Of a stretch of 64,000 bases of DNA, positions 3,054 through 33,244 are shown in pieces (position 1 is the stretch's first letter; the number at the start of each line of letters is the position of its first letter). The DNA is from Eledone cirrhosa (Eukaryota), in the NCBI GenBank assembly GCA_964016885.1, contig OZ024745.1:33108001-33172000 (forward strand), given 5' to 3'. The translations under genes and the position numbers were made by a program. The notes under the pieces are model-generated. The model made no database searches. It was not told where the DNA came from and saw only the letters and a list, made by a program, of their open reading frames with translations.

Positions 3054-3278
3054 CTAAATGGGAGATGGTCATATCAGAATATATTTACAATTATTATTTT
3101 GAAAGTCAAATAAATTTGCACATTTTAAATCGTATATGTATATCTAATGAGGATCAATGATACATCTTAAATTGTAGTCATTGAACCAATTTGGAGCCAA
3201 GGAGTCAACTGTCCAAATATCTGCTTTGCTAATTCTGATTAACACATCAATAGAGAAAATAAACAGATACGTGCTTAC

Positions 3279-3452
3279 CTGGCGTTTTTTGATTTCTTCT
3301 TTTTTTTGTTCAAGGAATTTTGTTGGAATTCCACTAACATTATCTTGCGCACTTATCAACAAATCCCACAACTCTTGCATAAAAATCCGGGCATTTTTGG
3401 GGTTCAGGAATCCGGTAAGATTAATTTGAATATCCTTTGGATCTGGCTGTTG
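3279..3452 (-). CDS. SRRM1: SRRM1 coding exon 4 (PWI domain C-terminal part)
   Basis: 174 nt, GTAAGC donor; QQPDPKDIQINLTGFLNPKNARIFMQELWDLLISAQDNVSGIPTKFLEQKKEEIKKRQ closely matches the SRm160 PWI domain (QINLTGFL...ELWPLLLSAQ...GIP). Confidence 0.95.
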
Positions 3453-4006
3453 CTATGAAGTTATAGAATAAAAAAATTTAACAACAAACGCCCACCTGAA
3501 ATCAACAGGCCATTACCTGTATGACAATCTAAAACAATAAAACAAAGGACAAAGGAGCTACAATGAACAAGTGTTCTTCATGGTTTAACAGATAATATAC
3601 TTAGCTTATTCCAAAAAGTAAAGAGGCCTGCAGGACAATAGCCAAAGAAATAAAACTGCTTTGTACTTACTAGTAAATACTAATCACACTAGTGCTCTTT
3701 AGTTTTGAAAATTATATAAATTTCTAACTAATGATCACAAACATTTATTTCAAATATAAATTACTGCTTCACCTCAACTAATATCAGTTAATAAAGTACA
3801 TCAATATTTTGGGGCCCTGCAAAATGTAGGCTGGACATATGGATGCTTTAACCACCGTTGAAAGGTAACCGAATACTACAAATAACAAAAGTGCTATCCT
3901 ATAACATTTTCTCATAACAAAATATCACTTAAAAAAAAGGAGAGAGAGAGAGAGAGAGAAGAAAGAATAGATTAAAAGGAAAAACCAGCCCCAAATTTAT
4001 TATTAT

Positions 4007-4046
<40 letters not shown>

Positions 4047-5071
4047 ATTTTTGCTTTGAAATTACTATATAGTGATTTCCAAGCAAAAATTATTTTATTT
4101 TATATATATATATATACTTCAGCCCAAATTCAGCTATGCAATAACTGAATTAAAACCTAAAAATTATTTTGGCATTTGATCCCAATGTTAGTAACATTAT
4201 AAACAAAAATATGAGCATTTCAGATGAAAATAGAACTGATTTGATTAAGAAATCACCCTAGGCCTACCTAAGAAAGTAGAAACCAACTTCTAAAACAATA
4301 ATTAGTGAAATCTAGGAAAGATAAAAAATTGTGGTATTACTGAACAAATCTTTAAATTGATATGTCAATGAGAAAGTCTTTTTGTGATCACTCATCTCAC
4401 TAGAAAAAGTAGCCAAATCTGACTCAAATCACACAATGAAAAAAAAAATTAGATAGACAATGTAATTGTAGAAAAACCTAAAAAGATGAGATGGTCACAA
4501 CTAGAATGCCTTGGATACTAATTCTGTCCAATCAGTGTTGACATGGGATTAAACTTTAAATTGAGAAACCATAAACACACATACATACACAAAGTCATAC
4601 AATTATATAAATCATGTAAATTTAATTAAACCAACGGAATTTTCTCACTGTATCATTGCTAAAAGGTAATATATTCCAAAACAAGTGCTCAGACAAATAA
4701 TTTAACTAACATAAATAAAACCAAATACTTTATTCTAAAGGGAGATAAATATGAAAATATTGTCATATTATATTATGACTTAAACCCGCACAGGATTAAA
4801 AGTAAATTTAGAAGCACCGAAAGAAGACTTTTTAGACCATTCCAAAATCAGAACTTAAACATAAAAATCCCCAATGTAACATACATGCTCATGTGTTTTT
4901 TTCTTTCTTTTGTTAACTAAGTCCCTAAACACAATAGTTCCTGTACACTAGCAGATAGTATTTTGGTGTAAATGCTATTACTTATTTTAGAGGGGGGAAA
5001 AAGATTAGAGCAGTGTGCAACAAATTACCATAAATGATGCAAGAGGAACAAAGGTCAAGAGAAACACATAC

Positions 5072-5263
5072 CACGGTTGAGAATGTCTTAAAATGTCCCG
5101 ACCATGTGGTTTATACCACCTTTGAGAGAAAGGTTGTTGCTCATCGATGGCAGCGACGACCAATAGCATCCAGCCGACATAATAGTAAGAAATTAATCCT
5201 GCAAGTGAGCAGCTTTGCCAGGACTTTGACGGGACAGGGAAGGCGTTTATAATTTGATCATCT
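5072..5263 (-). other. SRRM1: Candidate PTC-containing (poison) cassette exon in SRRM1 intron 3
   Basis: Non-repetitive GC-elevated island. It has a TACTGAT branch-like site, a pyrimidine tract with TAG acceptor, an immediate AGA TGA stop in phase 0, and a GTG|GTATGT donor (weaker donors at 5117 and 5120). Confidence 0.6.
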
Positions 5264-5324
5264 CTAATTGTGAGAGGAAACAGCCAAACATCAGTACATT
5301 ACCATAAACAACCAGAAACATATA

Positions 5325-6006
5325 TACCGTATACTCGTGTAAAAACCAAAAACAAATTTTAAAACTATTTTTTGAAGGTTAAATTTATGGGCAGCTATTA
5401 TTTTGAGGGACTGAAATTCACGCTAAAATTCAAAATACCAAATGGACTCTGAATTACTAAAAGCAAAAACAATGACTTACAGTAATAATTGTTTCTACGT
5501 TTAGGCACAAGGCCAGCAATTACCCAGTGCATTACTGGTACTTTATTTTATCGACCCCGTAAGGATGAAAGGCAAAGTCAACCTCGGCAGGATTTGAACT
5601 CAGATCGTAAAGGGACGTAACTATGCTGGAAAGCATGGCGTCCGACCCTCTACCGATATTGCCAATCCACAATGGTTTCTAGTTTAGGCACAAGGCCAGC
5701 AATTGTGGGGAGAGGTGAACATTTATTAAAATGACCCCAGGACAAATGGCAAAGTTGATGTTGGCAGGATTTGAACTCAGAATGTAAAGACATAGATGGA
5801 ACAAATGCCAAAAATCATTTTGCCTGACACTAATGATTCTGCCAATTCATTGCTTTCTGAATTCCAGTAATAATACTGATGTCTCTATCAACAAAACATT
5901 ATAAAGACTTCAAAGCCCTTTTATTTGTGTAACATAAAAATTAATTTCCTCATCCAATTATTATGAGATACATAGGGGCTCAACTTTTACACGAGTATAT
6001 ATGGTA
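5325..6006. mobile_element. Tc1/mariner/pogo-like MITE carrying two nested SINEs
   Basis: TIRs TACCGTATACTCGTGTAAAA ... TTTTACACGAGTATATATGGTA with TA ends. Confidence 0.7.
5484..5855 (-). mobile_element. Two tandem tRNA-derived SINE copies (family A)
   Basis: B-box GAGTTCAAATCC, core GCCTTTCATCCTTACGGGGTCGATAAAATAAAGTACCAG, tail GCTGGCCTTGTGCCTAAA..TAGAAAC(ATT)n; same family as 21163-21845. Confidence 0.85.
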
Positions 6007-6227
6007 TATATATAAATACAGATATAATTTACATTATAGAATTCAGTAGATTCTATATATACAAATAATTATATAGTTTTATATGACAAATAAGTACATT
6101 ATGAAATCTATTAAAATATGATACATGTCAATTATATGTTGTCAATAATCTATTACATTCAATTACATTATTAATATTACATATACAACATGACAAATAA
6201 CAAGAACAGATCATTAAAAGCACCTAC

Positions 6228-6350
6228 TTTGTCTTCAAGTTGATTATATACAAATTCTACAATAACATCATCCTCAATCCCTAAAAGTTCAGTGATCCTC
6301 TGAGATATCCATGGCTTCAGAGTTTCCACATTGACTTTGTTCATATCAAC
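6228..6350 (-). CDS. SRRM1: SRRM1 coding exon 3 (PWI motif)
   Basis: 123 nt phase 0-0; VDMNKVNVETLKPWISQRITELLGIEDDVIVEFVYNQLEDK contains the KPWI signature; TAG acceptor and GTAGG donor. Confidence 0.96.
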
Positions 6351-7675
6351 CTAAAATTACAGAAACAATCATATCAAATAATTGACTCACCCAACAAAAC
6401 AATGAATAGTACAAACAATGATAATGCTTTAATCTTGTATAATTTAAATATTAAATCACATTTTTTAAAGATATGTGAAAAATAATTTCATATGAATGCT
6501 CTTGGGAAAATGAAAAGACAGAAAGGGGTAATAAAATTATTTATAAGATGTAACAGAGATGAAGCAAATGGTCTCTAAACAAATAGAAACGACACTCAAA
6601 AGTAAACTTTAATAAGAAAGTCATCTCAAACTGTAAACAAACTTTTACTCATCAGTTTCCAACAATATATATACATTACCAGAAGTTCCTGGCGGTGATT
6701 ATAGCGGATTAATTGCCTTAAAGAGAAATTACACACAATTATACAATTCCATACCAAAATTTTGAAATTAATCTTTAAAAATATATATTAAATAGAGTAG
6801 CAGAGACTTATTAATATTATAAAACCATTACAGATATAATTATTATTAGCACTATTATCTATGAAAACCAAGTCTTTAATTTATTTTTGTCATATTCCTA
6901 GCAATATTATAAACATCATTGGTATTATGTCCACTTTTCTATGCTGGCATAAACTGGACGAGACTTGTTTTTTACAGCTTGATGCCGTTCTTGAGACAAA
7001 CCGATACTTTACAATTAAGTATGGCATATACTGTTCATTTTTGTTGGACCAATTAACTGCTTGCTTTAGATGGCATCAATATGAAAATATTCAGTGACTA
7101 ACACACACATCTGAGGCTATATTAGACACTTGGCCAAAATGCCAGGCAGTGGGACTGAATTGAAATCATGTGGTTCTGAAGTAAACTTCCTAATCTGATA
7201 TACATATAATTATTCACATTACCTTTGAAAACTGAACCTAGATTCTTTTTATCACATTCCTAGCAATATCATATATCAATTCTCATCTGAAGTTTTTTTG
7301 TTTTTTTTTTAATCACAGAATATGAAGACATTACCAAAAGAGATGTGGAAGCCATATCTACTAACAAATATTTTATATTTTCAGTTAGATTGACTAAACC
7401 AAGTCAAATTACATAGCTTGTCTATAAGCATTCCTTCTGGCAGAGCTTTAAGACAATATTTAGTTGAAAAATTGAACCTTGTAGCTTTCTGCCCCTACCC
7501 ATTCTGACATGCCTTATAAAGACTTGGAAACATTGTTTAGCCAACCTAATCCTGTCAGGAAAGCCTTACTCCTCAAACAGGCTAATCTACAATTTTAAGA
7601 TTAGAATTTTTACTAGTTTCAGTTAATATGAAAGAGAAGGAAAAAAAGAAAGGAAAAAAAAAAAAAGACATTTAC

Positions 7676-7765
7676 TTTTTTCTCCAATCCATCTGCAAAT
7701 TTCATTGATTTCAATAGTTTTTTCTTTTTATCTGCGAACCGATTGTCCTGCTCTGCACTGGTTCC
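7676..7765 (-). CDS. SRRM1: SRRM1 coding exon 2
   Basis: 90 nt; GTSAEQDNRFADKKKKLLKSMKFADGLEKK, near-identical to the SRm160 N-terminus; canonical AG/GT. Confidence 0.96.
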
Positions 7766-17560: not shown

Positions 17561-18011
17561 CATTGAGGAAAAGTGTGCTTGAAGGGAAAGACAAACAGTA
17601 ACATGGGAGGAGTGCATCTTCAAATGCTGTTGCTGTGTATGAGACTGTTATTCCCGTGTGAGCCTGTAGTCAAAATGGATGCTGCAGCTCATCAACAGTT
17701 TAAATGAAATTCTTTAGGCTCAAATGCATAGTCTTTTGAGAGAGAAAGATTCTAAGAATATATCTGTGTGTGTGTGTGTATGTATGCGTGGTAACCATTG
17801 ATAAAAGGTCAAGAAAAACAATGCTCAATCTAGTACAAGATAGCTTATTTGGTCTATATTAAATTTCATACACTTAATATGTAGTCGTGTTTTTAGTGAT
17901 GTATTATTATAATCTAGGTTTTCTTTGGAATTACCCTCAGTTCTTGAGTAGAAACTCATCACGAACTATGACCCCTTTTCGAAAAGTAATGCTTTTTCTT
18001 TAAAATTTGTC

Positions 18012-18091
18012 TTTGGGCCTGACGAGAGAGGCCAGTTACTCCACTATACAGTAGTGGTCATAACTGAACCCGAAACCTAAGGTCGCGCATA
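18012..18091 (+). ncRNA. Type I hammerhead ribozyme motif (family C, long stem II)
   Basis: CTGACGA (18019), stem II CAGTTA/TAACTG plus CCACTA/TAGTGG, GAAA (18072), stem III ACC-TAA-GGT, GTC triplet; stem I imperfect. Confidence 0.7.
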
Positions 18092-18115
18092 CATGAAATT
18101 TAATATTGCAAAAAA

Positions 18116-18165
<50 letters not shown>

Positions 18166-18214
18166 ATGATGTTAATAAATGTCAACTATATTTATAAAAC
18201 CATATTTATTCTAT

Positions 18215-18430
18215 TATATATATTTCAAGGGTACCAAAACTTTGGTACACACTCATCAAATAAAATACAAAGTTTGTTTTATAAATATTGACATATCCAG
18301 GAACGAGATCTTTCCTGAAAAAACTTGAACCGTTAAGATCTTGTTCCTGGATATGTCAATATTTATAAAACAAACTTTGTATTTTATCTGATGAGTGCGA
18401 ACCAAAGTTTTGGTACCCTTAAATATATAT
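18215..18430. repeat. ~85-bp-arm palindrome of a Penelope-pLTR-like repeat (family F)
   Basis: AAGGGTACCAAAACTTTGG...GAACGAGATCTT / AAGATCTTGTTC...CCAAAGTTTTGGTACCCTT; related copies at 22720-22860, 25150-25215 and 32895-33163. Confidence 0.8.
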
Positions 18431-18594
18431 TTTATAGATGGCACACTATCTCTCTCTCTCTCTCTCTCTCTAGTGTGTTACCTTTTCAACATATTGTATT
18501 TTAAAGAGCTTAGGATTCCTTTTCCTTTGAGCACATTATTGACAGGGAATAACGAGAATCTATGGCTCCATTAATTTATTGTTATATATATATA

Positions 18595-19050
18595 TGTAAC
18601 GAAGGGTATTAGTAGTGGTTGTTAGATGTAAGAACAACAAATAGCTGATTTACTTTATATATAAAAAGGTTTACTTAACTTCAGTCAAAAATAACAATAA
18701 ACAAGTTACCACGAGTCGTGAAGGTTGACAATGTTATTTTGTTGTTGGTTCATGAGGCTGGTGTAGTCTGAGACCAGGAGAGAGAAAGAGTAATGGTCTG
18801 TGGTTGACTGTAGACCTCCGTGGTCTGTAGGTAGCGATGAATCTTTCACATAGCTGTACTATAACGTATGGCCCCGATCTCTCTGTTTGTTAGACGTGGG
18901 ATAATACAGGCTTTATATACCTGTCGCTGTCTGTCTCCCACTTCGAGGGGTCGCTCACGCATGAACCTGTCCACGCCGAAAAGGATGGTGACCTAGAATT
19001 TGACTTTTAGGTGTCACCCAGGGTTCAAGGCATGGACAGATCTCGCTACA
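18595..19050. mobile_element. Solo LTR inserted in a (TA)n tract
   Basis: 456 bp with TG...CA ends and short terminal inverted repeats TGTAACGA/TCGCTACA; TATA-like signal on the minus strand; TA run on both sides. Confidence 0.7.
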
Positions 19051-19201
19051 TATATATATATATCATACACAAAACGCCAGCATCAACAGTTTTCCAAGAT
19101 TACAACATGAATGGACCTGTTATTTTTCTCTAAAAAAATATTTTTTCGATTCCGCCCTGCTAGTCTCCTCAATCTTCCTACTTTTCTTTAATTTATCATT
19201 C

Positions 19202-19241
19202 TATTTTCTGATGAAGGACTAGCGTCCGAAACGTTAAGACA
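19202..19241 (+). ncRNA. Minimal type I hammerhead motif (family D)
   Basis: CTGATGA-A-GGAC TAGC GTCC-GAAAC-GTT: 4-bp stem II and palindromic AACGTT stem III, the minimal form described for Penelope-like elements. Confidence 0.7.
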
Positions 19242-19344
19242 CTTTTCTTACTATATCAAACGTAAAACTAATAATCGTTTGTTCTGTTTGCCTTTTGGAT
19301 GTGTGTGTGTGTTGTGTGTGCATGCATGTATGTATGTATGTATG

Positions 19345-20772
19345 TATACTTGGTTGCCCTGATAAGTTCCTTGCTTTGGTTAGGCCTTTCCATGTCAACA
19401 TGAAGGCTTGGGTTAATGTCAGCGGTAGCATGTCGGAGCCTATCTCAGTAAAAAATGGAGTGAAACAGGGGTATATTCCAGCACCGACCCTGTTTGCCAT
19501 ATACTTTGCAATGGTTTTCTATATTGCATTCAGGAATTGCGAGCATGGTGTTTACATCCAATATCGAACCTCTGGCAGCGTATTTAACATCAGGCACTTT
19601 GCTGCAAAAACAAAAGTATTTGCATCAATCATAAGAGACCTCTTGTATGCAGATGATTGCGATCTTGTAGCGCACACAGAGAGTGATATGCAGCACATTT
19701 TGAATACATTTTCTGATGCTTGCACAGTCCTAGGATTGACTGGCAGTCTCAAGAAAACCGTCGTCATGTACCAACCTGCCTCTGGTAAGCAGTACAGTGA
19801 GCCAAATATCTATGTGTGTGGTAAACGACTTGGAGTGGTTGATCAGTTTGTCTACCTGGGAAGCACTCATCATCATCATCATCGTTTAACGTCCGTGTTC
19901 CATGCTTGCATGGATTTGCACTGTCAATCGATACAGCAATCTTGCTAATGAAATTCCATTCTGGATTAGGAAAGCAAGTGATGCTTTCGGAGAGCTAGAA
20001 AGACGCCTCTGGGGTCGACGAGACATACACAAGAAGACAAAAGTAAAGGTGTACAACGCATGTGTGCTCTCTTCTCTTCTTTATGCCCACAAGACCTGGG
20101 TCACATATAGACACTACCTTAAACAATTGGAGCATTTCCATCAGATGTGTCTCAGACGGATCCATGGCGTTCACTGGGGGGACTACATCAGTGATATCGA
20201 GATTTTGGAAAGCTCTCTGTGTGACAGTAAAGAAGCTCTTGTGCTTAAGCAAAGACTCTGATGGAGTGGTCACCTTGCCAGGATGAAGGATTCTAGAATA
20301 TTGAATGCTAACATCTCTGCTGATACATGGGAAAACGTAGCTGCTGATCGTAATAAATGGAGAAAGATTGTATATGAGGGCAAAGTTGCCCATGAGGCAT
20401 CTCGAATCGCATACAAGAAAGTAAAAAGGGATGTGAGGAAGGGCATTGCTGTTGCATTTCCAGACAACGCTGACATGCGTTGTCTGTGTGAGACTCTGTC
20501 TCAGCAAAGCTGGACTCGAGAGTCATCTTCGCAGTCATAAAGTGAGACCGGTGGTTGACTACCAGGCTGCTGTTGGAGATGCTGCTCATCATGTCTGCCA
20601 AGCATGTGGTAGAGAGTGTAAATCAGCAGGAGGGCTCAAACGACATGCAAAAGTGCATGCACTCCAACGACAGCTGGCTACTGCCAGTGAATGTTTTGGT
20701 TGCCAACTCTGTGCAAGCCATTTTAGATCATTGGGTGGGCTAAAAATCAATATTCGATTGCAGCACCGCTAA
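19345..20772 (+). mobile_element. 5'-truncated RTE (BovB-like) LINE with three C-terminal C2H2 zinc fingers
   Basis: VKNGVKQGYIPAPTLF, DLLYADDCDLVAH, FVYLGS, KVYNACVLSSLLY, WSGHLARM, then three CxxC...HxxxH-type units; interrupted at ~19868-19918 by a (CAT)n-tailed short element. Confidence 0.9.
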
Positions 20773-20775
20773 TTG

Positions 20776-20813
<38 letters not shown>

Positions 20814-20819
20814 GATATG

Positions 20820-20904
<85 letters not shown>

Positions 20905-20926
20905 TAATATATATATATATATATAT

Positions 20927-21087
20927 AACAAAGGAAATGTGGTAAGGAACCAGGTGGACCATAATGCACCAAAGTACTCAATACTTAGGGTAGTAGAGTG
21001 GGTAATAGGAATGAGTAGGACCCCGACCCCGAGTCCAGAATTAGCCGTCGAAACGGCTTGAGCTCAGCCATCGGGGTCCTACTCGTT

Positions 21088-21091
<4 letters not shown>
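20927..21091. repeat. Hairpin element with half-hammerhead (family E) between (TA)n tracts
   Basis: ATAGGAATGAGTAGGACCCCGA...TCGGGGTCCTACTCGTTCCTAT inverted arms plus a tail shared with 25655-25850 and 45110-45308. Confidence 0.75.
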
Positions 21092-21130
<39 letters not shown>

Positions 21131-21162
21131 TTAAAATTCTCTTTTATTATCATTATTATTAC

Positions 21163-21845
21163 ATCCCGCCGAGGTTGACTTTGCCTTTCATCCTTACGGG
21201 GTCGATAAAATAAAGTACCAGTAATGCACTGGGTAATTGCTGGCCTTGTGCCTAAAGCAGAAACAATTATTATTACATCGGTGGTGGATTGGCAGTAGTT
21301 ACGTCCCTTTACGATCTGAGTTCAAATCCCGCCGAGGTTGACTTTGCCTTTCATCCTTACGAGGTCGATAAAATAAAGTACCAGTAATGCACTGGGTAAT
21401 TGCTGGCCTTGTGCCAATAGTAGAAACAATTATTATTACATCGGTAGAGGGTCGGACGCCATGCTTTGACGTATAGAGTTACGGCCCTTGCCATTCTGAG
21501 TTCAAATCCCTCCGAGGTTAACTTTGCCTTTCATCCTTATGGGGTTGATAAAATAAAGTACCAGTCACGCACTGGGGTCGATTTAATCAACTTTCCCCTC
21601 CCCCCAAATTACTGGCCTTGTGCCTATATAAGAAACCATTATTATTACAGCGTTGGATTGGCAGTATCGGTAGAGAGCCGGATGCCATGCTTTGACGCAT
21701 AGAGTTACGGCCCTTGCCATTCTGTGTTCAAATCCCTGCGAGGTTAACTTTGACTTTCATCCTTACGGGGTCGATAAAATAAAGTACCAGTAATGCACTG
21801 TTTAATTGCTGGCCTTGTGCCAAAAAGTAGAAACAATTATTATTA
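21163..21845 (+). mobile_element. Tandem array of four variably truncated family A SINEs
   Basis: Four repeats of CCGAGGTT(G/A)ACTTTGCCTTTCATCCTTACGGGGTCGATAAAATAAAGTACCAG...GGCCTTGTGCC...AGAAAC(ATT)n. Confidence 0.88.
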
Positions 21846-21994
21846 TTGTCATTATTGTTGTTATGTTTTTTTTTCGTGCAATGGCCATACTCGATAACGA
21901 GGGGGCAGCCATCATCATGTATATATATATATATGTATCTACTAATATATTATGTTCTTGTGTTTTTGTACGTCACGCAAAGGGAAGTAACTCA

Positions 21995-22305
21995 TCTACT
22001 ACTTTGACGCTAAACTCCACCAGTTGCAGTCTGCGCATCAACATGAGATATTTTTCTCCACAAAGTTCGATCAACAGCAGAGTTTAAAGAGGAAAGATCA
22101 AGTCCAGCCCATAGGTTAACATTATCAAGCCATCGTTTTGGCTGCCGGCCTCTGCTTCTCTCACCAGCCAACTTTCCTTCCAGGCAACTCACACCACGAG
22201 TTGATCTTTTACTTTAAACTCTGCTGTTGCTGATCAAACTTTGTGGTGAAAAATAATGTTGATGCGCAGTCTGCACCTGGCGGAGTTTAGTGTCAAAGTA
22301 GTAGT
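21995..22305. mobile_element. RTE LINE 3'-end fragment with inverted partial copy
   Basis: Minus strand encodes CLEGKLAGERSRGRQPKRWLDNV..W...DRTLWR; 22214-22303 is an inverted copy of 21995-22088. Confidence 0.7.
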
Positions 22306-22999
22306 GTGTATGTAATAATTGTTTCTACTTTTGGCACAAGGCCAGCAATTAACCAGTACATTACTGATACTAGTGTGTATGTAATAATAATGTTTAACTA
22401 GCGTTCTTAGAATGGCTACACTTTTGTGAGTGTATGTGTGTGTGAGTGTGTTTGTGTCTGTGTGTTTTTATGTGTGAGTATGTGCGTGAGTGTATGTATG
22501 AGTATATGTGTGTGTTTTTGTGTGTGTGAGAGTGTGTGTGTGTGTGAGTGTATGTGTTGTCCAAGGAGCCAAGTCCCTAGCAATATCGCAATAAATTAGA
22601 ATTATTAGGAATATAAAACGACCGCAGTTGAAAGGTACATACGAATACACATCTACCCTTTAGCCGTCATTTTTGACGGCAGGGGGCCAGCTAGTATATA
22701 TATATATATGTATGTAAGCAAAGGGATATTTAATTTGTTGGGAATTCAACAAGTATATTTATAACAGATTCGAAGCACTCGACAAGTTTTCTTGAGTATA
22801 ATATCAATGATATTAATAAATGGAAACTATATTTATAAAACCATATTTATTCTATTATAACTGCTAAAAAAAATATACTTTATTTCATAAATATATCCTT
22901 CATAGTTGCACAAACAACATTACTAATCGTTTGCAATTCCTTCTGAATGAAAATATAAATGGAGCATATAAATAAATTTACAGTAGAATAACATAACTA

Positions 23000-23645
23000 A
23001 TATGTTTTACATATATACATAAATAACATTACAAATGCCTCAGTAACACTACAAAGGATGATACAATGAAAGATATATTCCTTCAATGCTACAATATTAA
23101 AGAACATGTAAAGGAAGGGGTGAATAACGGAGCCAACACCAGAGCAAAAGACAGCAACGTTGCAATACTGGGCAACCTCTCTAATGATTTTTGAGGCAAG
23201 CCAGCACACTCGTAGCGTTGCCTCGGGTGAGGGCGAAGCTGATGCGCTGAAACAGCCAAGCACCCTCGGGAGATTCGCCAGTGAGGAAAGGAACCTCGCA
23301 GTCAGCGGCCCGACTCCCCCAAACGTCTCGAAAGTCACAGGCTGAAAAATGTAGCTGGCCAACAGATCAGAGTATTTGAGGGTCTTACTCCGCTCTGCTG
23401 CAGAAGCTGTGGCTCTCGTCCTAATCGCAACACCCAGGATGTGGGAAAGAGCAAAAGAGTCACTAACAGTGACGTCCCAGGATAAGACCGTCAGGTCTTT
23501 TACCGTCACTTCTAGACAACCCAGATGGTTCCAAGACTGAGGGGATATTCGCCCGGGCCAAAGCTCTCTTCAGAATGAGGTTTTGCTCCGTGTGACGCGC
23601 GAAGCGGCCGGCATTCAGGCGGCAAGAAAGACCGTGGAGGCCTGT
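23000..23645 (-). mobile_element. CRE-clade (restriction-like endonuclease) non-LTR retrotransposon 3' fragment
   Basis: [47 protein letters not shown] and ISFALTRGNA-type motifs. Confidence 0.8.
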
Positions 23646-23647
23646 AG

Positions 23648-24110
23648 GAATTAAGCCGTACAGTGTTTAGCAACCATCGTTACTCTTTTGTTCAACATTG
23701 ACAAAGGAACGATGTACTAGTTTCAAGCTTATTAGCTATCGTCAGCACCGTACACCTTCCTGCCAGATGATTGAACGTCTGAAAGTATATACTTTCCTTA
23801 TGCATATTAACTGCTGAGCAGCCTAATTTGCATATCGAGTGAGTTAATCGGCTGGGCGCACCGAAAACGATAAATGGAAAAAATGAAACGAAATTTCATT
23901 TCTCACTCTTAGTACGGCTGTTACTTAAATATAAGTATGTATACGTACATACATATATGTATACAGACGTACAGTAGTATGTATATATATGCATATATGC
24001 ACTCATATATATATATGTGCGTATGGATTTACCGAACATTTATTATAATGCTCGGTTTGTTTGTAAATAAACATCCCGAATTAAGCCGTACAGTGTTTAG
24101 CAACCATCGT
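23648..24110 (-). mobile_element. ORF-less ~430-nt hammerhead element (family B) with 33-nt terminal redundancy
   Basis: GAATTAAGCCGTACAGTGTTTAGCAACCATCGT at 23648 and 24078 (period 430); internal hammerhead and octamer; second copy at 32347-32720. Confidence 0.75.
23710..23750 (-). ncRNA. Type I hammerhead ribozyme (family B)
   Basis: Minus strand reads CGGTG-CTGACGA-TAGCT AATA AGCTT-GAAAC-TAGTA-CATCG: full core, stem I CGGTG/CATCG, palindromic ACTAGT stem III, GTA triplet. Confidence 0.85.
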
Positions 24111-24189
24111 ATATATATACATACTACTGTCCGTCTATATACATATATGTATGTACGTTTAGATGGGTATGTTATGTTATAGATGATAA

Positions 24190-25215
24190 ATTATTTAAAT
24201 GTATAGTATTTTACATTGGAAAAATATTTAGAATCTAGTTTTGTTTATTTAATTAAAGTAAGTTTGGCAAAATTGTATTTAGCCAGAATTTGTTAATAGT
24301 TGTAAGTCAAATCTTAAACACCTAAAAAATTCCAAAGATTACGAAAAATTACGAGAGTTTACAAAGGATTAAGTACTTAATTAGAAGTATATACTAAAAC
24401 CATTTAAAAATTCAGACTATAAATTAAGACTATAAAAATTGAGATTATAAAAATCAATAAAGGAAATTTAAAGGAAGTTTAAAAGGGATTTAAAAAAAAA
24501 CTCAAATGACTCCAAGGATACATAAAAATCTCTTAAAAAGTTATAAGAAGTTATAAAAAATGATCTTAAAATATAATTAAAACATAAACCATACATTATT
24601 CCAAATTTATAAAAGTATTTGGAAATATATGAAAATGCATAAATATTAAAAATGTTTAAAATATTGGAAGATATGAAAATAATAGTTTTTCCGTATCTTT
24701 CAAAAAAATCTTCCAAAAAATTTTCAAAAAATCCTTTTAAAAAACATTCAAAAAGTCTTTTAAAAGAAAATTTTAAAAATCTTCGAAAACCTTTCTTAAA
24801 AGAATTTCAAGTAGTCATTCAAAAAGGTTATGATATATTTTTTGGAGGTAGGATTGATAAGTGTAATAATATAAAGTATATTTATGAAGTAGAAATATTA
24901 GAAAGTAAAGGTTTTAAGGAGTAAATTAAACATTTTATAAGTGTATTTTATATATTTACGAAGTTATTAAAATTAGAATTATATTAAATTCTTGAACCAT
25001 ATATGGATATAATCTGAGGAATGAGATTATAGGTGTTTGGATAGAGAAAACCGTTGCTTTTTCAATTTTTCTGACACTCATTTGCATACTTACTCATAAC
25101 CTTTGAATCACCCTAAATAAAATATTTTTTCCACTATCCAGCGAACCTTAACCGTTAAGGTTGTCTTTATGTATGTCAATATTTATAAAACAAATTTGTA
25201 TTTTATCTGATGAAA
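24190..25215 (+). mobile_element. Putative decayed Penelope-like element ORF followed by a family F repeat
   Basis: Extremely A-rich, Lys-rich broken frame (IVFPYLSKKSSK...VVIQKG...KYIYEV) resembling the PLE RT-to-GIY-YIG linker; flanked by an inverted family F copy upstream and a direct copy downstream. Confidence 0.4.
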
Positions 25216-25570
25216 GCATGTGTCACATGACCTCTACCGACCAATCAAAATTGTTTTGACCACAAGAATTTTTGCAACACCAAAGTAACGCTGGAGCCAC
25301 TTTTTTAACATAAAAACAGGTAGAATTCCCAAAACTAATCAGATCAGAGCAAACAACACCGACACTCTATCTCAAAATTATTTTTGAAAAGCATTTAGAA
25401 ATGCGCAACCGGTAAAAACTTAAAACCACAACTGAATACTAACCCATACAATCACTAATACTCTTTTATTCCTAATTAAACCATTTTTCAACTGTGAACA
25501 ATTTGTCAGCATTTTCTATTCCGTTTACCAATATATAATAACTTGTGTGTTACACCTCTATTCTTTTAAC

Positions 25571-25630
<60 letters not shown>

Positions 25631-25654
25631 TGTATGTATGTATGTATGTATGTA

Positions 25655-25850
25655 TAGGAAAATGTTTAACCCCAACTGCAGAGCTCAAACCGTTTCGAGG
25701 GCTATTTCTTGGCCCAGAAATAGCCGTCGAAACGGCTTGAGCTCTGCCGTCGGGGTTAAACCTTTTCCTATCACCCACTCTACTACCCTAAGTATTGAGT
25801 ACTCTGGTGCGTTATGGTCCATCTGGTTCCTTACCACACTTCCTTCGCTA
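25655..25850 (+). repeat. Hairpin element with half-hammerhead (family E)
   Basis: ~55-bp arms centred on TGGCCC (~25712); the right arm has TAGCCGTC-GAAA-CGGC..GCCGTC-GGGG; an 80-nt tail follows; microsatellite flanks. Confidence 0.78.
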
Positions 25851-26038
25851 TATATATATATATATATATATATAATAAATGTAATCTGAGTTTTTCGAAT
25901 ATTAATAACATTCGATACGTTTGCAATTATGCAAACAAGCCTCAATTTTATAGAGATGTCAGTAGAATGGTGATACCCAGAAACATTATTGTCTGCAGTT
26001 CTGTTCACATGCCAACATAAGAGCAAGAATGAAGGGTT

Positions 26039-26503
26039 TGTGGTAAAATGATTTATCCTAGTTGGATTGTTTATCGACATAGACGTGAGGGAAGGTCCCT
26101 CGTCTATTTACCATTTTTTGTAAGTGAGAATTATAACAAGTGAGTGGGTGTGTGCATAAACAAGACAATAACCACAACGAGAGTTATATTCAACAAATGT
26201 AAATAATGGTGATGTTTATTCTGTTTATATGTGTTTATTATATTACAAATGAAACATACCAAATATATACGTGATTCAGTTGTTGTGATGGGAGCGTATT
26301 ACAATTACAAAGGTATTGTGGGGTTTGCTGTTTGCTGTTGCCGATGGCTGTTTATCGTTTCGTGGTACAGAGGCTGTTTTCTGTGGCGTGTATACCGTCT
26401 GCTTTCCCGTGGCTGTCTCTGTTTACCTCTGGTGTTCTCAACCAGGGGGAGACAACTAGGCTTGGTCCATTATCCGCTAGGGAGCGTGAGGCGTCTTACT
26501 ACA
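26039..26503 (-). repeat. 3' LTR of the Gypsy element
   Basis: TGTGGTAAAA...CTTACTACA; by eye it differs from the other LTR by 3 substitutions and a 1-nt indel. Confidence 0.95.
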
Positions 26504-26718
26504 GTATCACCTGCCAGATATTCAAATCATCGAAAATCGATGTTATTACTCACACGTGGAGTAAGATGGCGAACAATGCAACAAGGGGGAGCTATTCGCT
26601 CTACCAATCATTAAATCCAGAATAAGGATTTGAAAAATGTTAAAAAACACACCATGCATGCATAAAAAAACAAGGCAAAGAAAAAGCAGAAACACAGAGG
26701 CAAAAAAAAAAGGTGCAG

Positions 26719-29700
26719 CTAACATAGTCTAAATATAGACGGTGCTGCAAATTTTTTTGGGCCAGTGGACCCTACGACCTGAACGGGTCGTGGTCTTGTA
26801 ACGTGGCGATAGTGGTGGTGTAGGGACAGGCGATGATGGTGGTTCAGGAACAGGCGTTCGCTCAACAGGCAAATATGAAGGGGTTCGTGGATCAGGAACC
26901 ACAGCGTCCGTGTCAAGGTGTGCCTGCTTAAGCCTGTCTATTGTAACTGTCTCCCTGGAACCTTTAATATCTAAAGTGAAATGCTTAGCCGAGCGCGCTA
27001 AGACACGGTAAGTTCCGGTGTAAGGCTGTGTGAGCAGAATCTTTCCTTACAAAGACATGCGTCCACGAGGCAACATCCCTCGGGACAGCAGTCTTGACAG
27101 TTTGTTTCCTAGTATCCATTGGCGGCAAATCCTGGAAATAGGAGCGCAAACGGGACACGTAGGAAGCGTGATCTTGGGCATCAAGATCGATAGGGGCAAG
27201 CATTTGCCCGGGCAACGTCAGAGGGGCACCGTACAGTACTTCGGCCGGTGAAAATCCAAAGTCGACCTTCACCGTTGACCGAATCCCCAATAGCACAATA
27301 GGGAGGTACTCGCTCCAACGCGCCGAGTCCATTGAGGCCATTAAGGAGGCCTTCAGTTGTCGGTGAAAACGCTCCACCATACCATTCGAAGCGGGATGGT
27401 ACGTCGTAGTTCTGATGCGTTTAGCACCAATTAATTTTGACAGTTCGAGGAAAAGGCTCGACTCGAACTGTCGTCCACGGTCGGTAGTTGCTGTGGATGG
27501 AACTCCATAACGAGAGATCCATCCAGACACAAGAGCACGCGCTGTTGTCTCAGCGGTGATGTTTTTCAAGGGGATGGCTTCAGGCCATCTCGAAAAACGG
27601 TCAATTATGGTCAGCAGATAAGAATAACCATCGCTGACAGGCCAAGGTCCCACTATATCAATATGAATGCGCGAAAAACGCGCATCTGGGTTAGTAAAGG
27701 TACCCAGGGGAGCCTTGACGTGTCGATGGACCTTTGATTTCTGGCAAGCGACGCAGGAACGGCACCAAGCAGCAATTTCACGCCTCATATTTGGCCAGAA
27801 AAATCTAGCTGATATGAGCTTTGCTGTGGCAGAAGATCCTGGATGCGAGAAACCATGTAATGCCAGAAACACGGTCCGACGATGATTCTCTGGAACGAAG
27901 GGCCTAGGCACGTCCAAAGAGACGTCGCAGAGAATTTGGCCAACTGCAGTCGACAGAGACAAGTATTTCATCTCGCAATTCGCAAACTCGGGCGATGTAA
28001 CATCCAATGACTCAAGGGGAGGCTGATCCGCAGCCAAACGAGTCAGATCTATGTCAGAGGGTGACGAGATCGCTGTCACGGGTAAGCGGGACAAAGTGTC
28101 GGGCGCTGTATTTAGTGAACCCGGAATGTGTTGGATACCATTCGTATATTGCGAGATGAAATCAAGGTGTCTCGTCTCTCTGGGCGAGTATTTATCAGCC
28201 TTCGTTTTCAACGCAAAAGTCAATGGTTTATGGTCAGTGAGAATAGTAAATAGTCTACCCTCTAGTATATGTGAAAAATGTTTCACGGCCAAATAGATGG
28301 CTAAAAGCTCTCTTCCAAAGGTGCTGTAACGCGTCTCAGCAGGTTTCAGCTTTCTGGAAAAGAACTCCAGCGGTTGCTGGTAACCATTGGTGTTTTGCTG
28401 TAGCACTGCGCCCACAGCGATATCCGATGCATCAACACAAAGCGTTAGCTTTGCACCGGGTACCGGGTGAGCCAGTAAAGAGGCATTAGCCAAAGCAGTT
28501 TTGGCGTGCTGAAAATCAGCAAGTTGAGTGTCTGTCAAAGAAATGTCTTTGTTCTTCTTCCGACAATTTTTAAAAATCTCCGTCAGGGAGAAAAGCAATC
28601 TTGCACAATTTGGCACGAAACGCCTATAAAAGTTAATCAGGCCTAAGAACTGGCGTAACTGACGTAGTGAGGTCGGTGGAGGCAAATCCTCTATGACCTT
28701 AACTCGCTCAGGCCGGAGTCGAATACCGTCAGCATCGATGACGTGACCCAAGAAAGTCAGTGACTTAACACCAAAAACACATTTGGGTGCATTAATCTGC
28801 ACGTTATACGCCTTCAATCGGCGGAAAAGAAGATTCAAATGGTGCGTATGTTGCTCTTGAGAATAACTAGCAATGAGCAGGTCGTCAATATAGGTATAGA
28901 CGAAATCGAGGCCACGAGTAACCTCATCCATAAACCGCTGAAACGTACTAGCGGCATTCCTTAATCCGAACGGCATGGTCAAAAACTCAAATGACCCAAA
29001 TGGCGTAACTATAGCCGTTTTTATGGACAGGAATTTGATGGTACGCACGAATTAAATCCAGTTTGGAGAATATCTTGCATCCCTGCAACGAAGACGCAAA
29101 GTCTTGCAGATGAGGGATAGGATAACGGTCCGGTTCCGTTATCGAATTTAAGCGTCGATAATCTCCAGTAGGTCTCCAATCGCCAGTCGCTTTCGGTACC
29201 ATGTGTAATGGGGACGCCCACGGGCTCGTGGACGGACGAATAATCCCCAACTGCAGCATATGATCAAACTCTGATCGTGCTGCTTTGAGTTTGTCCGGAG
29301 GTAAGCGACGAGAACGAGAAAAAACGGGAGCAACAGTTGTAGATATGAAGTGCTCCGTGGTATGAGTTGGCTCATAAACTCGAAAATTTCCCTGAGTCAG
29401 TTGCGGGAACGAGTTCAACAATGCATGGTAAGTATCACCGGTGTTAGCAAGAAAAAAGGTCGGGCTAACCGTTGGAACTCCTGCTGCCTTGCCAACAACA
29501 GAAAAACTAGTGATGTCATCAATTAGGCTTTTACGACGGAGGTCCACCGTCAATGAAAAATGGTGGAGAAAATCCGCGCCTAGAATCGGATGCGGCAAGG
29601 CAGTGACAGTAAAAATCCATTTAAACTCACGCCGCAGATTACGGAACTGCAAAGGTAGCGAGATTTGTCCGAAGGTTCGAATCGGCGAACAATTTACTGC

Positions 29701-29886
29701 CTGCAACTCAATAGGTGACTCAGGGGGAGTCTCCTTCATACAACACACAGGCCATATTGAACAAGCTGCACCTGTGTCAACCAGAAAGGCTCTACCTGAT
29801 AGCAGGTCCTCAATGAAAAAGTGGCGGTTGGATGATGTTTCGCAGAGCGCACTATCCGCCGTTAGTGACTCTGGTCGTCGTTTCCC
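26719..29886 (-). pseudogene. Gypsy pol (protease, RT, RNase H, integrase), frameshifted
   Basis: [37 protein letters not shown] and DDE integrase motifs (HIDIVG, TDRG, MVERFH). Frame breaks at ~29020 ([12 protein letters not shown], short deletion) and ~27000. Confidence 0.93.
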
Positions 29887-30636
29887 ATGTAAGCACAAGG
29901 AGGCCTACAACGGGCGGCTTTGTCACCATATTTGTCATGGTAATAACAATATGGTGGTTTTGATGTTTTGGAAGGGCTACGGTGGCGAGGAGTTGAATAA
30001 GTTCGTGAGCGGCTCCTCTGCCGTCCAAAAGACCTGAATTCCTGGCACAACTCCGCCATTTGACGAGTCATGGCTTCCATTGTTTTGACTAATTTCTCAT
30101 CACTCGTTGATGAGCGTGATTGAGGAAGAGAAGAGGAAGCAACGTACTTTGGCTTCGAAGTGTCTCTCTTCGTCACTTCTACTATTTTGTCAGCAGAGAC
30201 AGCAATGTGGTCGAGGGTATTTACTTCTAGCATATGGGCTAGGATCGCCTGTACCTTTTGAGGTAGGCGAGAGAAGAACAATTGCTTCAGGAAAGGGCTA
30301 TCCTGATCTTGGGAATCACTCAAATTCCGCAAATGCCGGAGAAAAGCGGTAGGGGTTCTGTCACCTAGTCGTTCGTCCTCGATCAATGACCGAAAACGAC
30401 TCTCTACCGACTTACAGTTCCTTCTCAAGATCTCGCCTTTTAAAGACTCATACGTTAAGTCAGAGGGGGTCTGTAATTAGGTCTTGGACCGAATCTGCTA
30501 AATTAGGGGGAAGTCCGCTAATCAAGACAGCGAGGCGCTGGTCAGACTCGGTCTTACAGACCGTAAAATACGCCTGTAGCTGGGCGAACCACAGCTTAGG
30601 GTTTCCGGTAAAGGCGGGCAAATGTGGCGCATTCAT
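29862..30636 (-). pseudogene. Gypsy gag, frameshifted near 30430-30460
   Basis: MNAPHLPAFTGNPKLWFAQLQAYF..., [31 protein letters not shown] (CX2HX9CX3C). Confidence 0.9.
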
Positions 30637-31288
30637 TGTGAATCGTTTAAAATAAAAAAAAAATATATATATAAACAGCAATTAATGTTCCCTCGTACAG
30701 GGAAAAGCAAACACCCAAAATGGAAAAAAAATGAAAGGTCAAAAAGAAACAGACATTCAAAACATTAGGAAATAGGAAAAATACATAAAATACATATATA
30801 TATTAAAAAAAAGAAAAATTTTCCTTCAACGTCTATCCCTTGTGTTGCTTCAACGGGCCAGCCAAATCAAATAACCCGTGAAAAAGAGAAAAAAAAAAAA
30901 TGTTTGTTTTAGGGTATATCTACGTTGGATATCAACAATAGGTAGCCTGTGGCTAAAAATCCCTTAGAAAAAAAGTAAGGCATGTATATCCCCTACGGGG
31001 CAGTAATGTTCACAAAAAAGTTTTTTTCCCTTGATCAAATATGGAACACACGCAATTCAAAATGTCCCTGTCCTGGCGGAAAATTACAAAACGGGGAAGG
31101 AAAGCAATGCCATCTTGGAAACATTTTTTGGCTGGTTTGTATACCTTGTCAATACGGTATAAACACTTTATTATTTCTCTGTCTTTTTTTTGTATTTTCG
31201 TAAGTTGCGAAAGGGTTGGCAACGTGGTAATAACAGTGAAGTTCAACTGAATAAAAAGGCTGCGTAAAATTCTTACGTCGGTCACCAG

Positions 31289-31752
31289 TGTGGTAAAAGG
31301 ATTTATCCTAGTTGGATTGTTTATCGACATAGACGTGAGGGAAGGTCCCTCGTCTATTTACCATTTTTGTAAGTGAGAATTATAACAAGTGAGTGGGTGT
31401 GTGCATAAACAAGACAATAACCACAACGAGAGTTATATTCAACAAATGTAAATAATGGTGATGTTTATTCTGTTTATATGTGTTTATTATATTACAAATG
31501 AAACATACCAAATATATACGTGATTCAGTTGTTGTGATGGGAGCGTATTACAATTACAAAGGTATTGTGGGGTTTGCTGTTTGCTGTTGCCGATGGCTGT
31601 TTATCGTTTCGTGGTACAGAGGCTGTTTTCTGTGGCGTGTATACCGTCTGCTTTCCCGTGGCTGTCTCTGTTTACCTCTGGTGTTCTCAACCAGGGGGAG
31701 ACAACTAGGCTCGGTCCATTATCCGCTAGGGGGCGTGAGGCGTCTTACTACA
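31289..31752 (-). repeat. 5' LTR of the Gypsy element
   Basis: Near-identical to 26039-26503; PBS immediately internal at ~31273-31287. Confidence 0.95.
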
Positions 31753-31949
31753 GGTTCATTCTACTGACATGGCTATAAAATTGAGGCTTGTTTGCATAAT
31801 TGCAAACGAATCGAATGTTATTATTAATATTCGAAAAACTCAGATTACATTCATTGTATTCATCCATGTAGAGCGAAAAAAAAAAAATTTCTTTTTTATT
31901 TGAATTTGGCAAAGCCGGCTATTTATCGCTCGTATACAGGAAACTGACT

Positions 31950-32050
31950 GGCCAGTCTGCTGATATGCAAATCTGGCTGATCAGTGGATCTGCTAATATG
32001 CAGATCTGACTGCTCAGCCAGTCTGCTAATATGCAAATCAGGCCGATCAG
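31950..32050 (+). promoter_or_regulatory. 3x 33-nt repeat, each unit carrying an octamer motif
   Basis: ATGCAAAT at 31965 and 32031, ATGCAGAT at 31998; ~85 nt upstream of the hammerhead core. Confidence 0.5.
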
Positions 32051-32099
32051 TCACTGTGTATTTTTGAAAATAACATATATTTTCACTAACTCTGACAGT

Positions 32100-32178
32100 T
32101 TGGCAGGTGAACAGTGAGCTGTACTGATGAAGGCTGATATCCAGAAACAGTAGTGTCTGCAGTTCTGTTCACATGCCA
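32100..32178 (+). ncRNA. Type I hammerhead ribozyme with extended stem I (family A)
   Basis: CTGATGA (32124)-AGG CTGATAT CCA-GAAAC-AGTAGT-GTC (site after 32157); stem I TTGGCA.GTGAACAG.TGAG.CTGTA pairs with TGCAG.TT.CTGTTCAC.TGCCAA. Confidence 0.85.
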
Positions 32179-32562
32179 ACACATGAGCAAAAATGAAGGG
32201 TTCATTCTACTGACATGGCTATAAAATTGAGGCTTGTTTGCATATTGCAAACGAATCGAATGTTATTATTAATATTCCAAAAACTCAGATTACATTTATT
32301 GTATTCAGCCATGTAGAGCGAAAAAAAAGTTTTATTTTATATATATATAAATGGAAAAAATGAAATGTCATTTCTCACTCTTAGTACGGCTGATACTTAA
32401 ATGTATGTATACGTACATACATATATGTATACAGACGTACAGTACAATGTATATACATACATACATGCACACATACATATATGTACGTATGGGTTTACCG
32501 AACATTTATTATAATGGAAAGTATATACTTTCAAACGTTCAATCAACTGACAAGAAGGTATA

Positions 32563-32603
32563 CGGTGCTGATGACAGCTAATAAGCTAGAAACTAGTTCA
32601 TCG
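32563..32603 (+). ncRNA. Type I hammerhead ribozyme (family B, second copy)
   Basis: CGGTG-CTGATGA-CAGCT AATA AGCTA-GAAAC-TAGTT-CATCG; lies in the inverted half of the 32347-32720 copy. Confidence 0.8.
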
Positions 32604-32816
32604 TTCCTCTGTCAGTGTTGAACAAATAGGGCAGTGATGGTTGCCGAACACTGTACGGCTAATAATTCGGGCTTTTGTTTACAAACAAACCGAGCATTAT
32701 AATAAATGTTCAGTAAACGTACATATATGTGTGCATACATACGTACATATATGTATGTGTGCATGTATGTATATACATACTACTATACATATATGTATGT
32801 ACGTATACATACTTAC

Positions 32817-32878
<62 letters not shown>

Positions 32879-32894
32879 TGTATATATATATACA

Positions 32895-33163
32895 ATGATA
32901 TTAAATAAATGGAAACTATATTTATAAAACCATATATATTCTATTATATATATTTCAAGAGTACCAACAATTTTGGTATGCTATCATCAGATAAAATACA
33001 AATACCCTTAAAATATATATAATAGAATAAATATGGTTTTATAAATATAGTTTCCATTTATTTAATATCATTGAATACTTACCCCAGAAACTTGTCGAGT
33101 GCTCTGAATCAGTTATAAACATCTATATTTGTTGGATTTCCAATAAATTAAATATCTCTTCTA
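32895..33163. repeat. Family F repeat, inverted pair
   Basis: ATGATATTAAATAAATGGAAACTATATTTATAAAACC ... GGTTTTATAAATATAGTTTCCATTTATTTAATATCAT; the distal part is the reverse complement of 22720-22860. Confidence 0.78.
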
Positions 33164-33164
33164 C

Positions 33165-33244
<80 letters not shown>

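Follow-up and report, generated by a model that had tools for sequence, protein, structure and literature searches.

The stretch under study is a 64,000-nucleotide window of the Eledone cirrhosa genome (contig OZ024745.1 of assembly GCA_964016885.1, forward-strand positions 33,108,001 to 33,172,000; hereafter the window, with coordinates counted from its first base), in which an earlier note had pointed to a cluster of type I hammerhead ribozymes. Our analysis indicates that the cores named there are a mixture, made up of a retrozyme lineage represented by families F3 and F4 and mostly of broken-off tails of autonomous Penelope-like elements (PLEs). We regard it as likely, with a probability of about 0.6, that F3 and F4 are mobilised by a PLE protein that copies their self-cleaved and circularised monomer RNA, the other cores being mostly PLE tail stubs. 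What is new here is a clonal-array signal of the kind that would be expected from reverse transcription round one circular RNA. How retrozymes re-enter the genome, and whether the hammerheads of PLEs matter, are open questions, RNA circles having been shown and their use as templates merely proposed. The E. cirrhosa genome (3.0 Gb in 1,796 contigs) combines a very young family, long clonal arrays and intact candidate helpers, which renders the question testable. The interest lies in these clonal arrays and not in the hammerhead cluster itself.

Clonal arrays of the youngest F3 subfamily

The youngest F3 subfamily has a 424-nt unit and 1,667 exact 62-base matches in the genome. A query composed of six young units gave 22 scored loci, from which the 12 longest arrays were analysed, providing 136 monomers once monomer intervals outside 380-560 nt (a few, in L591 and L592) had been dropped. 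Five of these arrays carry an array-wide substitution, present in both arms where both were counted. Specifically, A328T occurs in 17/17 units of one array and C398T in 9/9 units of another, while A129G is found in 11/11, 10/10 and 7/7 units of three arrays. Two more long arrays have a shorter TA run in 17/18 and 7/8 of their units, and five equal the reference save for three single-unit indels. Nine further substitutions are each confined to single units, with none shared by a subset of units in any of the 12 arrays. Among eight arrays taken by position, there are five in which every distance between units is smaller than that to the closest different array, and a sixth ties. For the long arrays the best fit would be a one-unit bottleneck followed by amplification at insertion, with a circular monomer as the simplest form of such a bottleneck.

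A one-unit bottleneck could also arise without an RNA circle, either by rolling transcription of an excised monomer DNA circle or by repeated jumps of a reverse transcriptase to the 3' end of one linear monomer. Either route predicts clonal arrays; an octamer element (described below) is present in each unit, and repeated jumps are known for other reverse transcriptases (PMC12039810). Against both routes, the cleavage junctions of all 136 monomers show no scar and no variant within 8 nt, the monomer is selected for a closed, highly paired fold, and related retrozymes accumulate as RNA circles (PMC7229834). We consider these two routes rather improbable, and a circular RNA to be the probable template of F3 and F4.

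Geometry of F3 and F4 insertions

In 10 of 13 young F3 arrays one arm ends at unit position 276-277 and the other at 218-221, with both ends in (TA)n; the remaining three include one with the second arm unresolved and two with a single core-bearing arm. Arm starts, 24 in all, are spread across the unit, three of them 5-14 nt past the cleavage site and none on it. Among 30 F4 loci sampled by position, most end at 403-408 or 427-435 and none ends at the cleavage site. Insertions of both families consist of a partial tandem, an inverted 5'-truncated arm and an optional tail in a (TA)n target, and with both ends in (TA)n any target duplication is masked. This is the PLE pattern, since the arms, tail and (TA)n agree with PLE insertions, for which a partial tandem, inverted arm and tail are described (PMC8557442), and since the two internal starts agree with a lizard PLE (Poseidon PAc of Anolis) that in vitro uses two internal start sites and extends both strands (PMC11167929). 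One locus of 30 (L237) has an F4 copy joined directly to a shortened 3' region of the 900-aa PLE family discussed below, which is a weak lead.

These ends bear on another idea, in which the arrays lengthened only once they were in place, through unequal crossing over or gene conversion, or owe their uniformity to the assembler. The A-B-A-B order of units in L576 and L568 is typical of local duplication, and L591 has many small indels, a sign of poorer sequence. This idea is nonetheless quite improbable, given that the private variants span both inverted arms, that differences of 0-2 substitutions per 424 nt between arrays leave little time for conversion, and that fixed positions are kept at both outer ends.

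F3, F4 and F7 as branches of one probable retrozyme lineage

The earlier note had divided its five cores among four sequence families. Local alignment of F3 with F4 over ~290 nt gives a score of 108, as compared with 45 for the best of 100 shuffles, and the F3 cores (23745 and 32568) are thus homologous to the F4 core (32124), which leaves three lineages. A third branch, F7, lies between F3 and F4. The several parallel ribozyme parasites that had been envisaged are accordingly reduced to one lineage with at least three branches.

Units measure 419-538 nt in F3 and ~438 nt in F4. There are 26,639 exact F3 cores genome-wide (0 in the control) and 1,400 exact F4 cores, so that tens of thousands of hammerheads invisible to Rfam stem from a single retrozyme lineage. 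Direct tandems were found for 45 of the 100 first-listed F3 cores, and F3 arms contain up to 14 cores; F4 arrays in the sample have fewer than three units, with dimers and near-trimers at L365, L369, L389, L404 and L405. No protein frame was linked to F3 or F4 units among the window open reading frames (ORFs) and in 30 F4 plus 30 F3 loci taken by position, apart from L295 and L552.

Those two loci speak for the view that all of the cores, F3 and F4 included, are merely truncated pseudo-long-terminal-repeat (pseudo-LTR) tails of autonomous PLEs. An endonuclease piece lies 1.3 kb upstream on the same strand in L552 (1/30 F3 loci by position) and 0.9 kb upstream, beyond the inverted arm, in L295 (1/30 F4 loci), and the view does hold for F2, F5, F6 and possibly F1, as shown below. 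For F3 and F4 it is largely refuted and we give it very little credence: their units are closed, being directly preceded by the end of another unit and not by a coding region, no frame is present within arrays of up to 14 units, and F4 is not above shuffles when compared with six PLE tails.

The stem covariation whose absence the earlier note had listed among its refuting observations is present as compensatory changes between F3 and F7. In 11 F3 and F7 sequences (F4 rows were excluded as misaligned by MAFFT), stems I and II are paired in 99.2% of 120 cells, 5 of 12 pairs change on both sides, and there are 14 compensated cells versus 4.0 in shuffles. The circular monomer folds with z scores of -9.9 (F4) and -10.8 (F3) relative to 40 shuffles, in F3 partly through TA-rich palindromes; stem III of F3 is itself palindromic. 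In the F4 consensus (window 32120-32157) loop III bases pair with the CUGAUG core of the predicted circle, a pairing that would turn the ribozyme off in that circle. At L384 an F4 copy has its hammerhead core deleted between two stem I arms.

An octamer element with the sequence ATGCAAAT is located ~80-165 nt upstream of the hammerhead in F3, F4 and F7 and is reversed in the F5 tail. Its window sites are 31965, 32031, 23826 and 25080, and it is also in the F3, F4, F7 and F5-parent consensus sequences. It is possibly an internal promoter element. A promoter of the small nuclear RNA type, as in newt satellite 2, was set aside: U2 upstream regions of this genome are without the octamer, and their comparison with F3 and F4 gave no match above shuffles.

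Taken together, the ORF-less closed units, the tandem hammerheads, the PLE-type insertion geometry and the presence of young autonomous PLEs in the genome make it very probable that the F3/F4 lineage is a non-LTR retrozyme.

Cleavage signal and the case for a circular template

The 5' ends of F4 were sampled in 96 segments anchored just past the predicted cut. Four of the 96 begin exactly at the first base after the cut (0.4 expected) and 12 begin within 259-266 (one an internal deletion; ~3 expected, Poisson p ~0.0004-0.0007), while 29 continue into the upstream unit. This accumulation of 5' ends at the cut, together with the passage of 7 of 8 copies through the upstream site, suggests that the F4 hammerhead cleaves partially in vivo. 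Contigs of two runs at 23560-24120 were also inspected. One run, which may come from the sample behind the assembly, has tandem joints of 426-430 nt, and in the run of a second organism cover is weak and scattered; no inference is drawn from either.

Several points weigh against a cleaved circle as the template. As just mentioned, the upstream site is passed by 7 of the 8 F4 copies that extend to it, and a pile-up at the F3 cleavage site is absent (1/105 anchors, the sample being biased towards copies with a core). The base of stem II is mismatched in F3 and F4 (U.U, C.A or A.A), and given this mismatch their cleavage may be weak. Frog retrozyme dimers remained uncleaved in vitro in 8 of 9 cases (10.64898/2026.07.22.740005), and PLE insertion in vitro did not depend on hammerhead cleavage (PMC11167929). 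The sequences compared for covariation are related to each other and their structure was supplied by the analyst. The helper family is not assignable by tail similarity, with F4 at shuffle level against all six PLE tails; F3 is above shuffles against three of the six, putatively through TA-rich stretches. In regards to the arrays, the 12 are the top matches among 22 to a six-unit query, a selection that favours long homogeneous arrays, and 7 of the 12 lack an array-wide substitution, leaving five informative arrays of which three share one variant. Of the eight arrays sampled by position, one has units in A-B-A-B order and another is mixed; L576 alternates in this way with 14-16 differences, the units of L578 differ at 22 sites, and L569 and L568 are mosaic. 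Because mixed and A-B-A-B arrays exist, either dimer circles or linear multimers are copied as well, or old arrays have decayed. The pattern in L576 and L568 is as expected from a dimeric circle that was copied twice.

Alternatively, the templates could be linear read-through transcripts of homogeneous master arrays, with the hammerhead merely trimming the ends and no circle being used. The PLE reverse transcriptase starts internally and accepted unprocessed RNA in vitro (PMC11167929), mixed and A-B-A-B arrays require multimer templates, and the F4 5' ends at the cut site show copying of linear cleaved RNA. That A129G is common to three arrays, and that five arrays equal the reference in substitutions and TA length, is also what daughters of a few masters would look like. 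However, each new array-wide variant (A328T, C398T) would still need a one-unit bottleneck plus re-amplification, linear copying only shortens arrays and yet arms reach 12-14 units, and none of the nine single-unit substitutions recurs in another long array. We judge linear masters to be unlikely, and consider the odds to be slightly better than even that the youngest F3 is a living retroposon whose circular RNA is copied in rolling-circle fashion by a PLE protein, with both target strands primed at two fixed sites.

A cycle of this type would begin with transcription of a tandem copy, each unit of which contains an octamer. Hammerheads would then cut the transcript to monomers, probably acting as dimers through the palindromic F3 stem III, and a host ligase would close the highly self-paired circle, as coral, mussel and axolotl retrozymes lead one to expect. 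A PLE protein would next nick both (TA)n strands, and reverse transcription would start at unit positions 277 and 221, two fixed ends that are directly observed in F3 arrays. Without a template end the enzyme could run for up to 14 turns of the putative circle and thereby yield two inverted arms of identical units with a variable junction; inverted arms, unit identity and variable junctions are all observed in F3 arrays. Less often, the template would be a dimer circle or a linear multimer. If this is true, each young F3 insertion is a clonal record of one RNA circle, and the arrays testify directly, in the genome, to the circular template that has long been proposed for retrozymes and PLEs. 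It would also offer, in a 424-nt circle and PLE proteins that are young and intact, a natural pair with which a small RNA circle could be written into tandem DNA of several kilobases.

Autonomous PLEs, their tail stubs and candidate helpers

The remaining hammerheads are mostly ordinary tail stubs. Copies of F2 extend upstream with falling coverage, and in five loci a GIY-YIG frame was seen by eye 680-810 nt before the core. A search with this frame found the F2 core 700-930 nt downstream on the same strand in 16 of 20 loci; the parent frame has a CX2-5CxxC linker, and Pfam gave no GIY-YIG match for a 69-aa piece of it. Since this GIY-YIG family carries the F2 hammerhead downstream, the core at 19208 is taken to lie in the truncated pseudo-LTR tail of an old autonomous PLE.

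The half-cores at 21040 and 25720 belong to F6. They are half-cores as had been claimed, 3' hammerhead halves of the U3-A8 core type and not CUGANGA, and both window copies are truncated inside stem II. The F6 consensus is without CUGANGA, and a CUGANGA parent (just 30 heterogeneous matches) was rejected in favour of a U3-A8 parent; two untruncated copies have a TTGANAA core, and the 4,177 matches to a pattern for this core show every one of the four bases at N7. Each of 5 chosen loci has a PLE frame (443-786 aa), with the hammerhead 682-1235 nt downstream in four. The parent is a Hydra-type PLE with frames of 690-790 aa, the longest of which has Hydra-clade motifs, and F6 is on this sequence evidence the tail of such an element. 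F5 is likewise the pseudo-LTR tail of an autonomous PLE: of 30 long loci, 8 have the end of an endonuclease frame on the same strand 0.85-1.45 kb upstream (1.5-kb flank), and 3 have an inverted PLE piece. F1 is old, with copies 71-81% alike, homology extending at least 825 nt upstream and, in the window, an inverted tail and no tandem; no linked PLE frame was found in seven extended loci, and F1 is possibly a PLE tail.

Hydra-type PLEs are abundant, intact and young in this genome, with 117,053 first-look candidates. Four 832-aa PLE frames differ by 6-17 of 2,496 nt and two 900-aa frames by 5 of 2,700, and these two families are young intact candidate helpers for F3 and F4. The RWR, DKT and CxCX5C motifs occur in L261, L270 and L483 (F6 parent and 832-aa family), the assignment to the Hydra clade being made by motif; Pfam does not recognise the Hydra-type proteins, and there are 660 unnamed homologues at E<=1e-20. 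In the tails of L261, L265 and L270 the two youngest autonomous PLE families examined have a CCGAAGA core, with C at position 4. Descriptors with a fixed CUGANGA miss three families, the two with CCGAAGA and the F6 parent with TTGANAA.

Hammerheads and other features of the window

Cores were searched with a type I hammerhead descriptor that includes a stem I rule, with 100 block-wise dinucleotide shuffles as controls. Five sites were found in the 64 kb (19208+, 23745-, 32124+, 32568+ and 32990-; shuffles mean 0.09, max 2), four of which are in 18012-32720, where shuffles gave 0 (max 0). Thus, of the five complete cores claimed by the earlier note, those at 19208-19235 (+), 23745-23715 (-), 32124-32157 (+) and 32568-32598 (+) are recovered, while the one at 18019-18084 (+) has the core motifs and fails the stem I rule in the window copy owing to a G.G mismatch that is paired in the family consensus. 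Window ORF inspection agrees with the earlier statement that no core lies in an intact ORF, none being inside a long ORF. The retrozyme interpretation survives for F3 and F4 (three of the five cores plus half-core 25975) and not for 19208 or 21040/25720, which are pseudo-LTRs of autonomous Penelope elements of the kind that the note had named as its alternative. Rfam, suggested there as a check, gave 58 matches at E<=1 in the window, with no curated hammerhead model among them, whereas the descriptor does find the cores.

First-look candidates, whose numbers differ from copy numbers and are not to be equated with them, were 337 for F1 (18019), 4,092 for F2 (19208), 2,864 for F3 (23745/32568), 3,029 for F4 (32124), 2,299 for F5, 2,850 for F6 (21040/25720) and 3,116 for F7. 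A loose scan of 1.37 Mb of fetched loci yielded 297 cores in many further clusters, and five cores in 15 kb thus reflect a genome that is rich in such elements and not a functional cluster.

There are two F3 copies. One (23650..24110, minus strand; core 23745-23715, octamer 23826) is a permuted copy of ~1.07 units that is 88.6% identical to the young monomer and spans young-unit position 35 to position 63 one turn later. The other (32347..32821, plus strand) is a two-armed insertion with an inverted arm at 32347-32516 and a sense arm at 32511-32821 (core 32568-32598); the inverted arm ends 3' at unit position 277 and the sense arm at 221, as in the young arrays. The single F4 insertion is also two-armed (25870-32323) and is interrupted by a young Ty3/gypsy element. 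Its left part (25870..26038, plus) contains an inverted arm at 25870-25969 (unit 408 to 306, beside (TA)n) and an upstream partial unit at 25965-26038 (plus) with the half-core 25975. The Ty3/gypsy-type LTR element (26039..31752, minus) has LTRs at 26039-26503 and 31289-31752 that are identical at 461/464 aligned bases, flanked by a 4-bp GGTT duplication. The remainder of F4 (31753..32323, plus) comprises the last part of the partial unit and a complete unit of 438 nt, with a long stem I, core 32124-32157 and octamers at 31965 and 32031. The half-core at 25975, which had been listed separately, is thus a partial unit from the upstream part of the 32124 insertion that the Ty3/gypsy element split off.

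In regards to the tail stubs, F2 (19062..19300, plus) is the last ~220 nt of its PLE and has a minimal hammerhead, while F1 (17765..18098, plus) is an old 5'-truncated repeat with an inverted tail at 17765-17876 and a sense part at 17894-18098, its core having a long stem II. F6 is present as a stub at 21032..21090 (plus), the 3' half of a U3-A8 hammerhead from a Hydra-type PLE tail, and as a fold-back stub at 25657..25848 (plus) that joins an inverted short end to a sense end with tail and has no 5' core half. F5 goes beyond the families that had been noted: a head-to-head pair of PLE tail ends at 18155..18430 (no strand assigned) has two degenerate cores, a piece at 25048..25217 (plus) has an octamer at 25080 and a 5' core half at 25207, and a two-armed stub at 32900..33226 (no strand assigned) has an intact minus-strand core at 32990-32945.

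The window has several other features. An unrelated LINE-like (long interspersed element) frame fragment at 22997-23569, in a region extending to 23650, has its upstream end abutting the permuted F3 copy, and the junction near 23650 is either a template switch or a later insertion; this fragment has a putative restriction-like endonuclease motif, with no Pfam match. A LINE reverse transcriptase fragment in decay adjoins F2 (19238-20772), and a 945-aa LINE frame with endonuclease plus reverse transcriptase occupies 47367-50204. An ~460-nt repeat between (TA)n flanks (18590-19050) has copies in a few other loci; a 163-nt repeat in four tandem copies (21163-21830), resembling a short interspersed element, is present in 197 of ~600 fetched loci; and an 800-nt low-complexity AT-rich stretch (24250-25050) has no match in other fetched loci. 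On the minus strand, 1268-7750 contains exons of a PWI-domain, serine/arginine-rich gene, presumably SRRM1-like, with 5' exons near 6300-7750, and the hammerhead cluster appears to lie upstream of it.

Comparison with known systems

By sequence, F3 and F4 satisfy the description of animal non-LTR retrozymes (Cervera and de la Pena 2020, PMC7229834), which likewise lack ORFs, stand in tandem with a unit length of some hundreds of bases, and have one type I hammerhead per unit and a highly self-paired predicted circle, and for which PLEs are proposed as helpers. The weak U.U stem II base of axolotl HHR_Amex2 in that study resembles that of F3 and F4. F3 and F4 units, at 420-540 nt, are at the top of the reported range. 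What they add is an insertion into (TA)n with a pair of inverted arms and two fixed 3' ends, and arrays that are clonal; that study demonstrated circles and cleavage, whereas F3 and F4 are known here from the genome. Its text makes no mention of cephalopod, octopus or squid, and in the main texts of the open-access literature we found no description of a cephalopod hammerhead or retrozyme (supplements of PMC8557442 and PMC4209133 may list some) and no demonstration of rolling-circle copying of retrozyme or PLE circles. Circular templates were proposed to explain PLE tandems in 2014 (PMC4209133) and again in 2020 (PMC7229834).

Among PLE minimal hammerheads (Cervera and de la Pena 2014, PMC4209133), F2 likewise has an extra base after A9, G10.1-C11.1 and no loop III. 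Schistosoma Cercyon has the U3-A8 core of F6, which differs by its 5-bp stem III, and, in contrast to that survey, the young helper PLEs here have a CCGAAGA core. In Hydra-clade and canonical EN+ PLEs (Craig et al. 2021, PMC8557442), too, insertions into (TA)n take the form of partial tandems with an inverted, 5'-truncated arm and an optional tail, and the RW[KR], DKT and CxCX5C motifs of these PLEs are those of the F6 parent and the 832-aa family; Hydra elements are few outside cnidarians in that study and are abundant and young here, where tails measure 27-95 nt. The Anolis element Poseidon PAc (Frangieh et al. 2024, PMC11167929) resembles F3 and F4 in that two internal starts define the tail, both strands are nicked and extended, and the target is AT-rich. 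Unlike what we propose for F3 and F4, it is an autonomous element with a linear template, and the ribozyme is dispensable in the assay.

Finally, a preprint by Li, Clavereau and Pollet (2026; 10.64898/2026.07.22.740005) that covers 31 vertebrates, 3 insects, 1 anthozoan and no mollusc defines retrozymes by no fewer than two successive units that have a complete hammerhead, an arrangement that F3 and some F4 loci have. Retrozymes and PLEs co-occur there as they do here, and retrozymes are considered non-autonomous PLE derivatives; a parent pseudo-LTR for F3 and F4 was not found by tail comparison or in flanking loci. The preprint explains arrays by amplification in place once a copy has inserted, whereas F3, with its arms, its ends and its clonality, points to arrays that are made at insertion.

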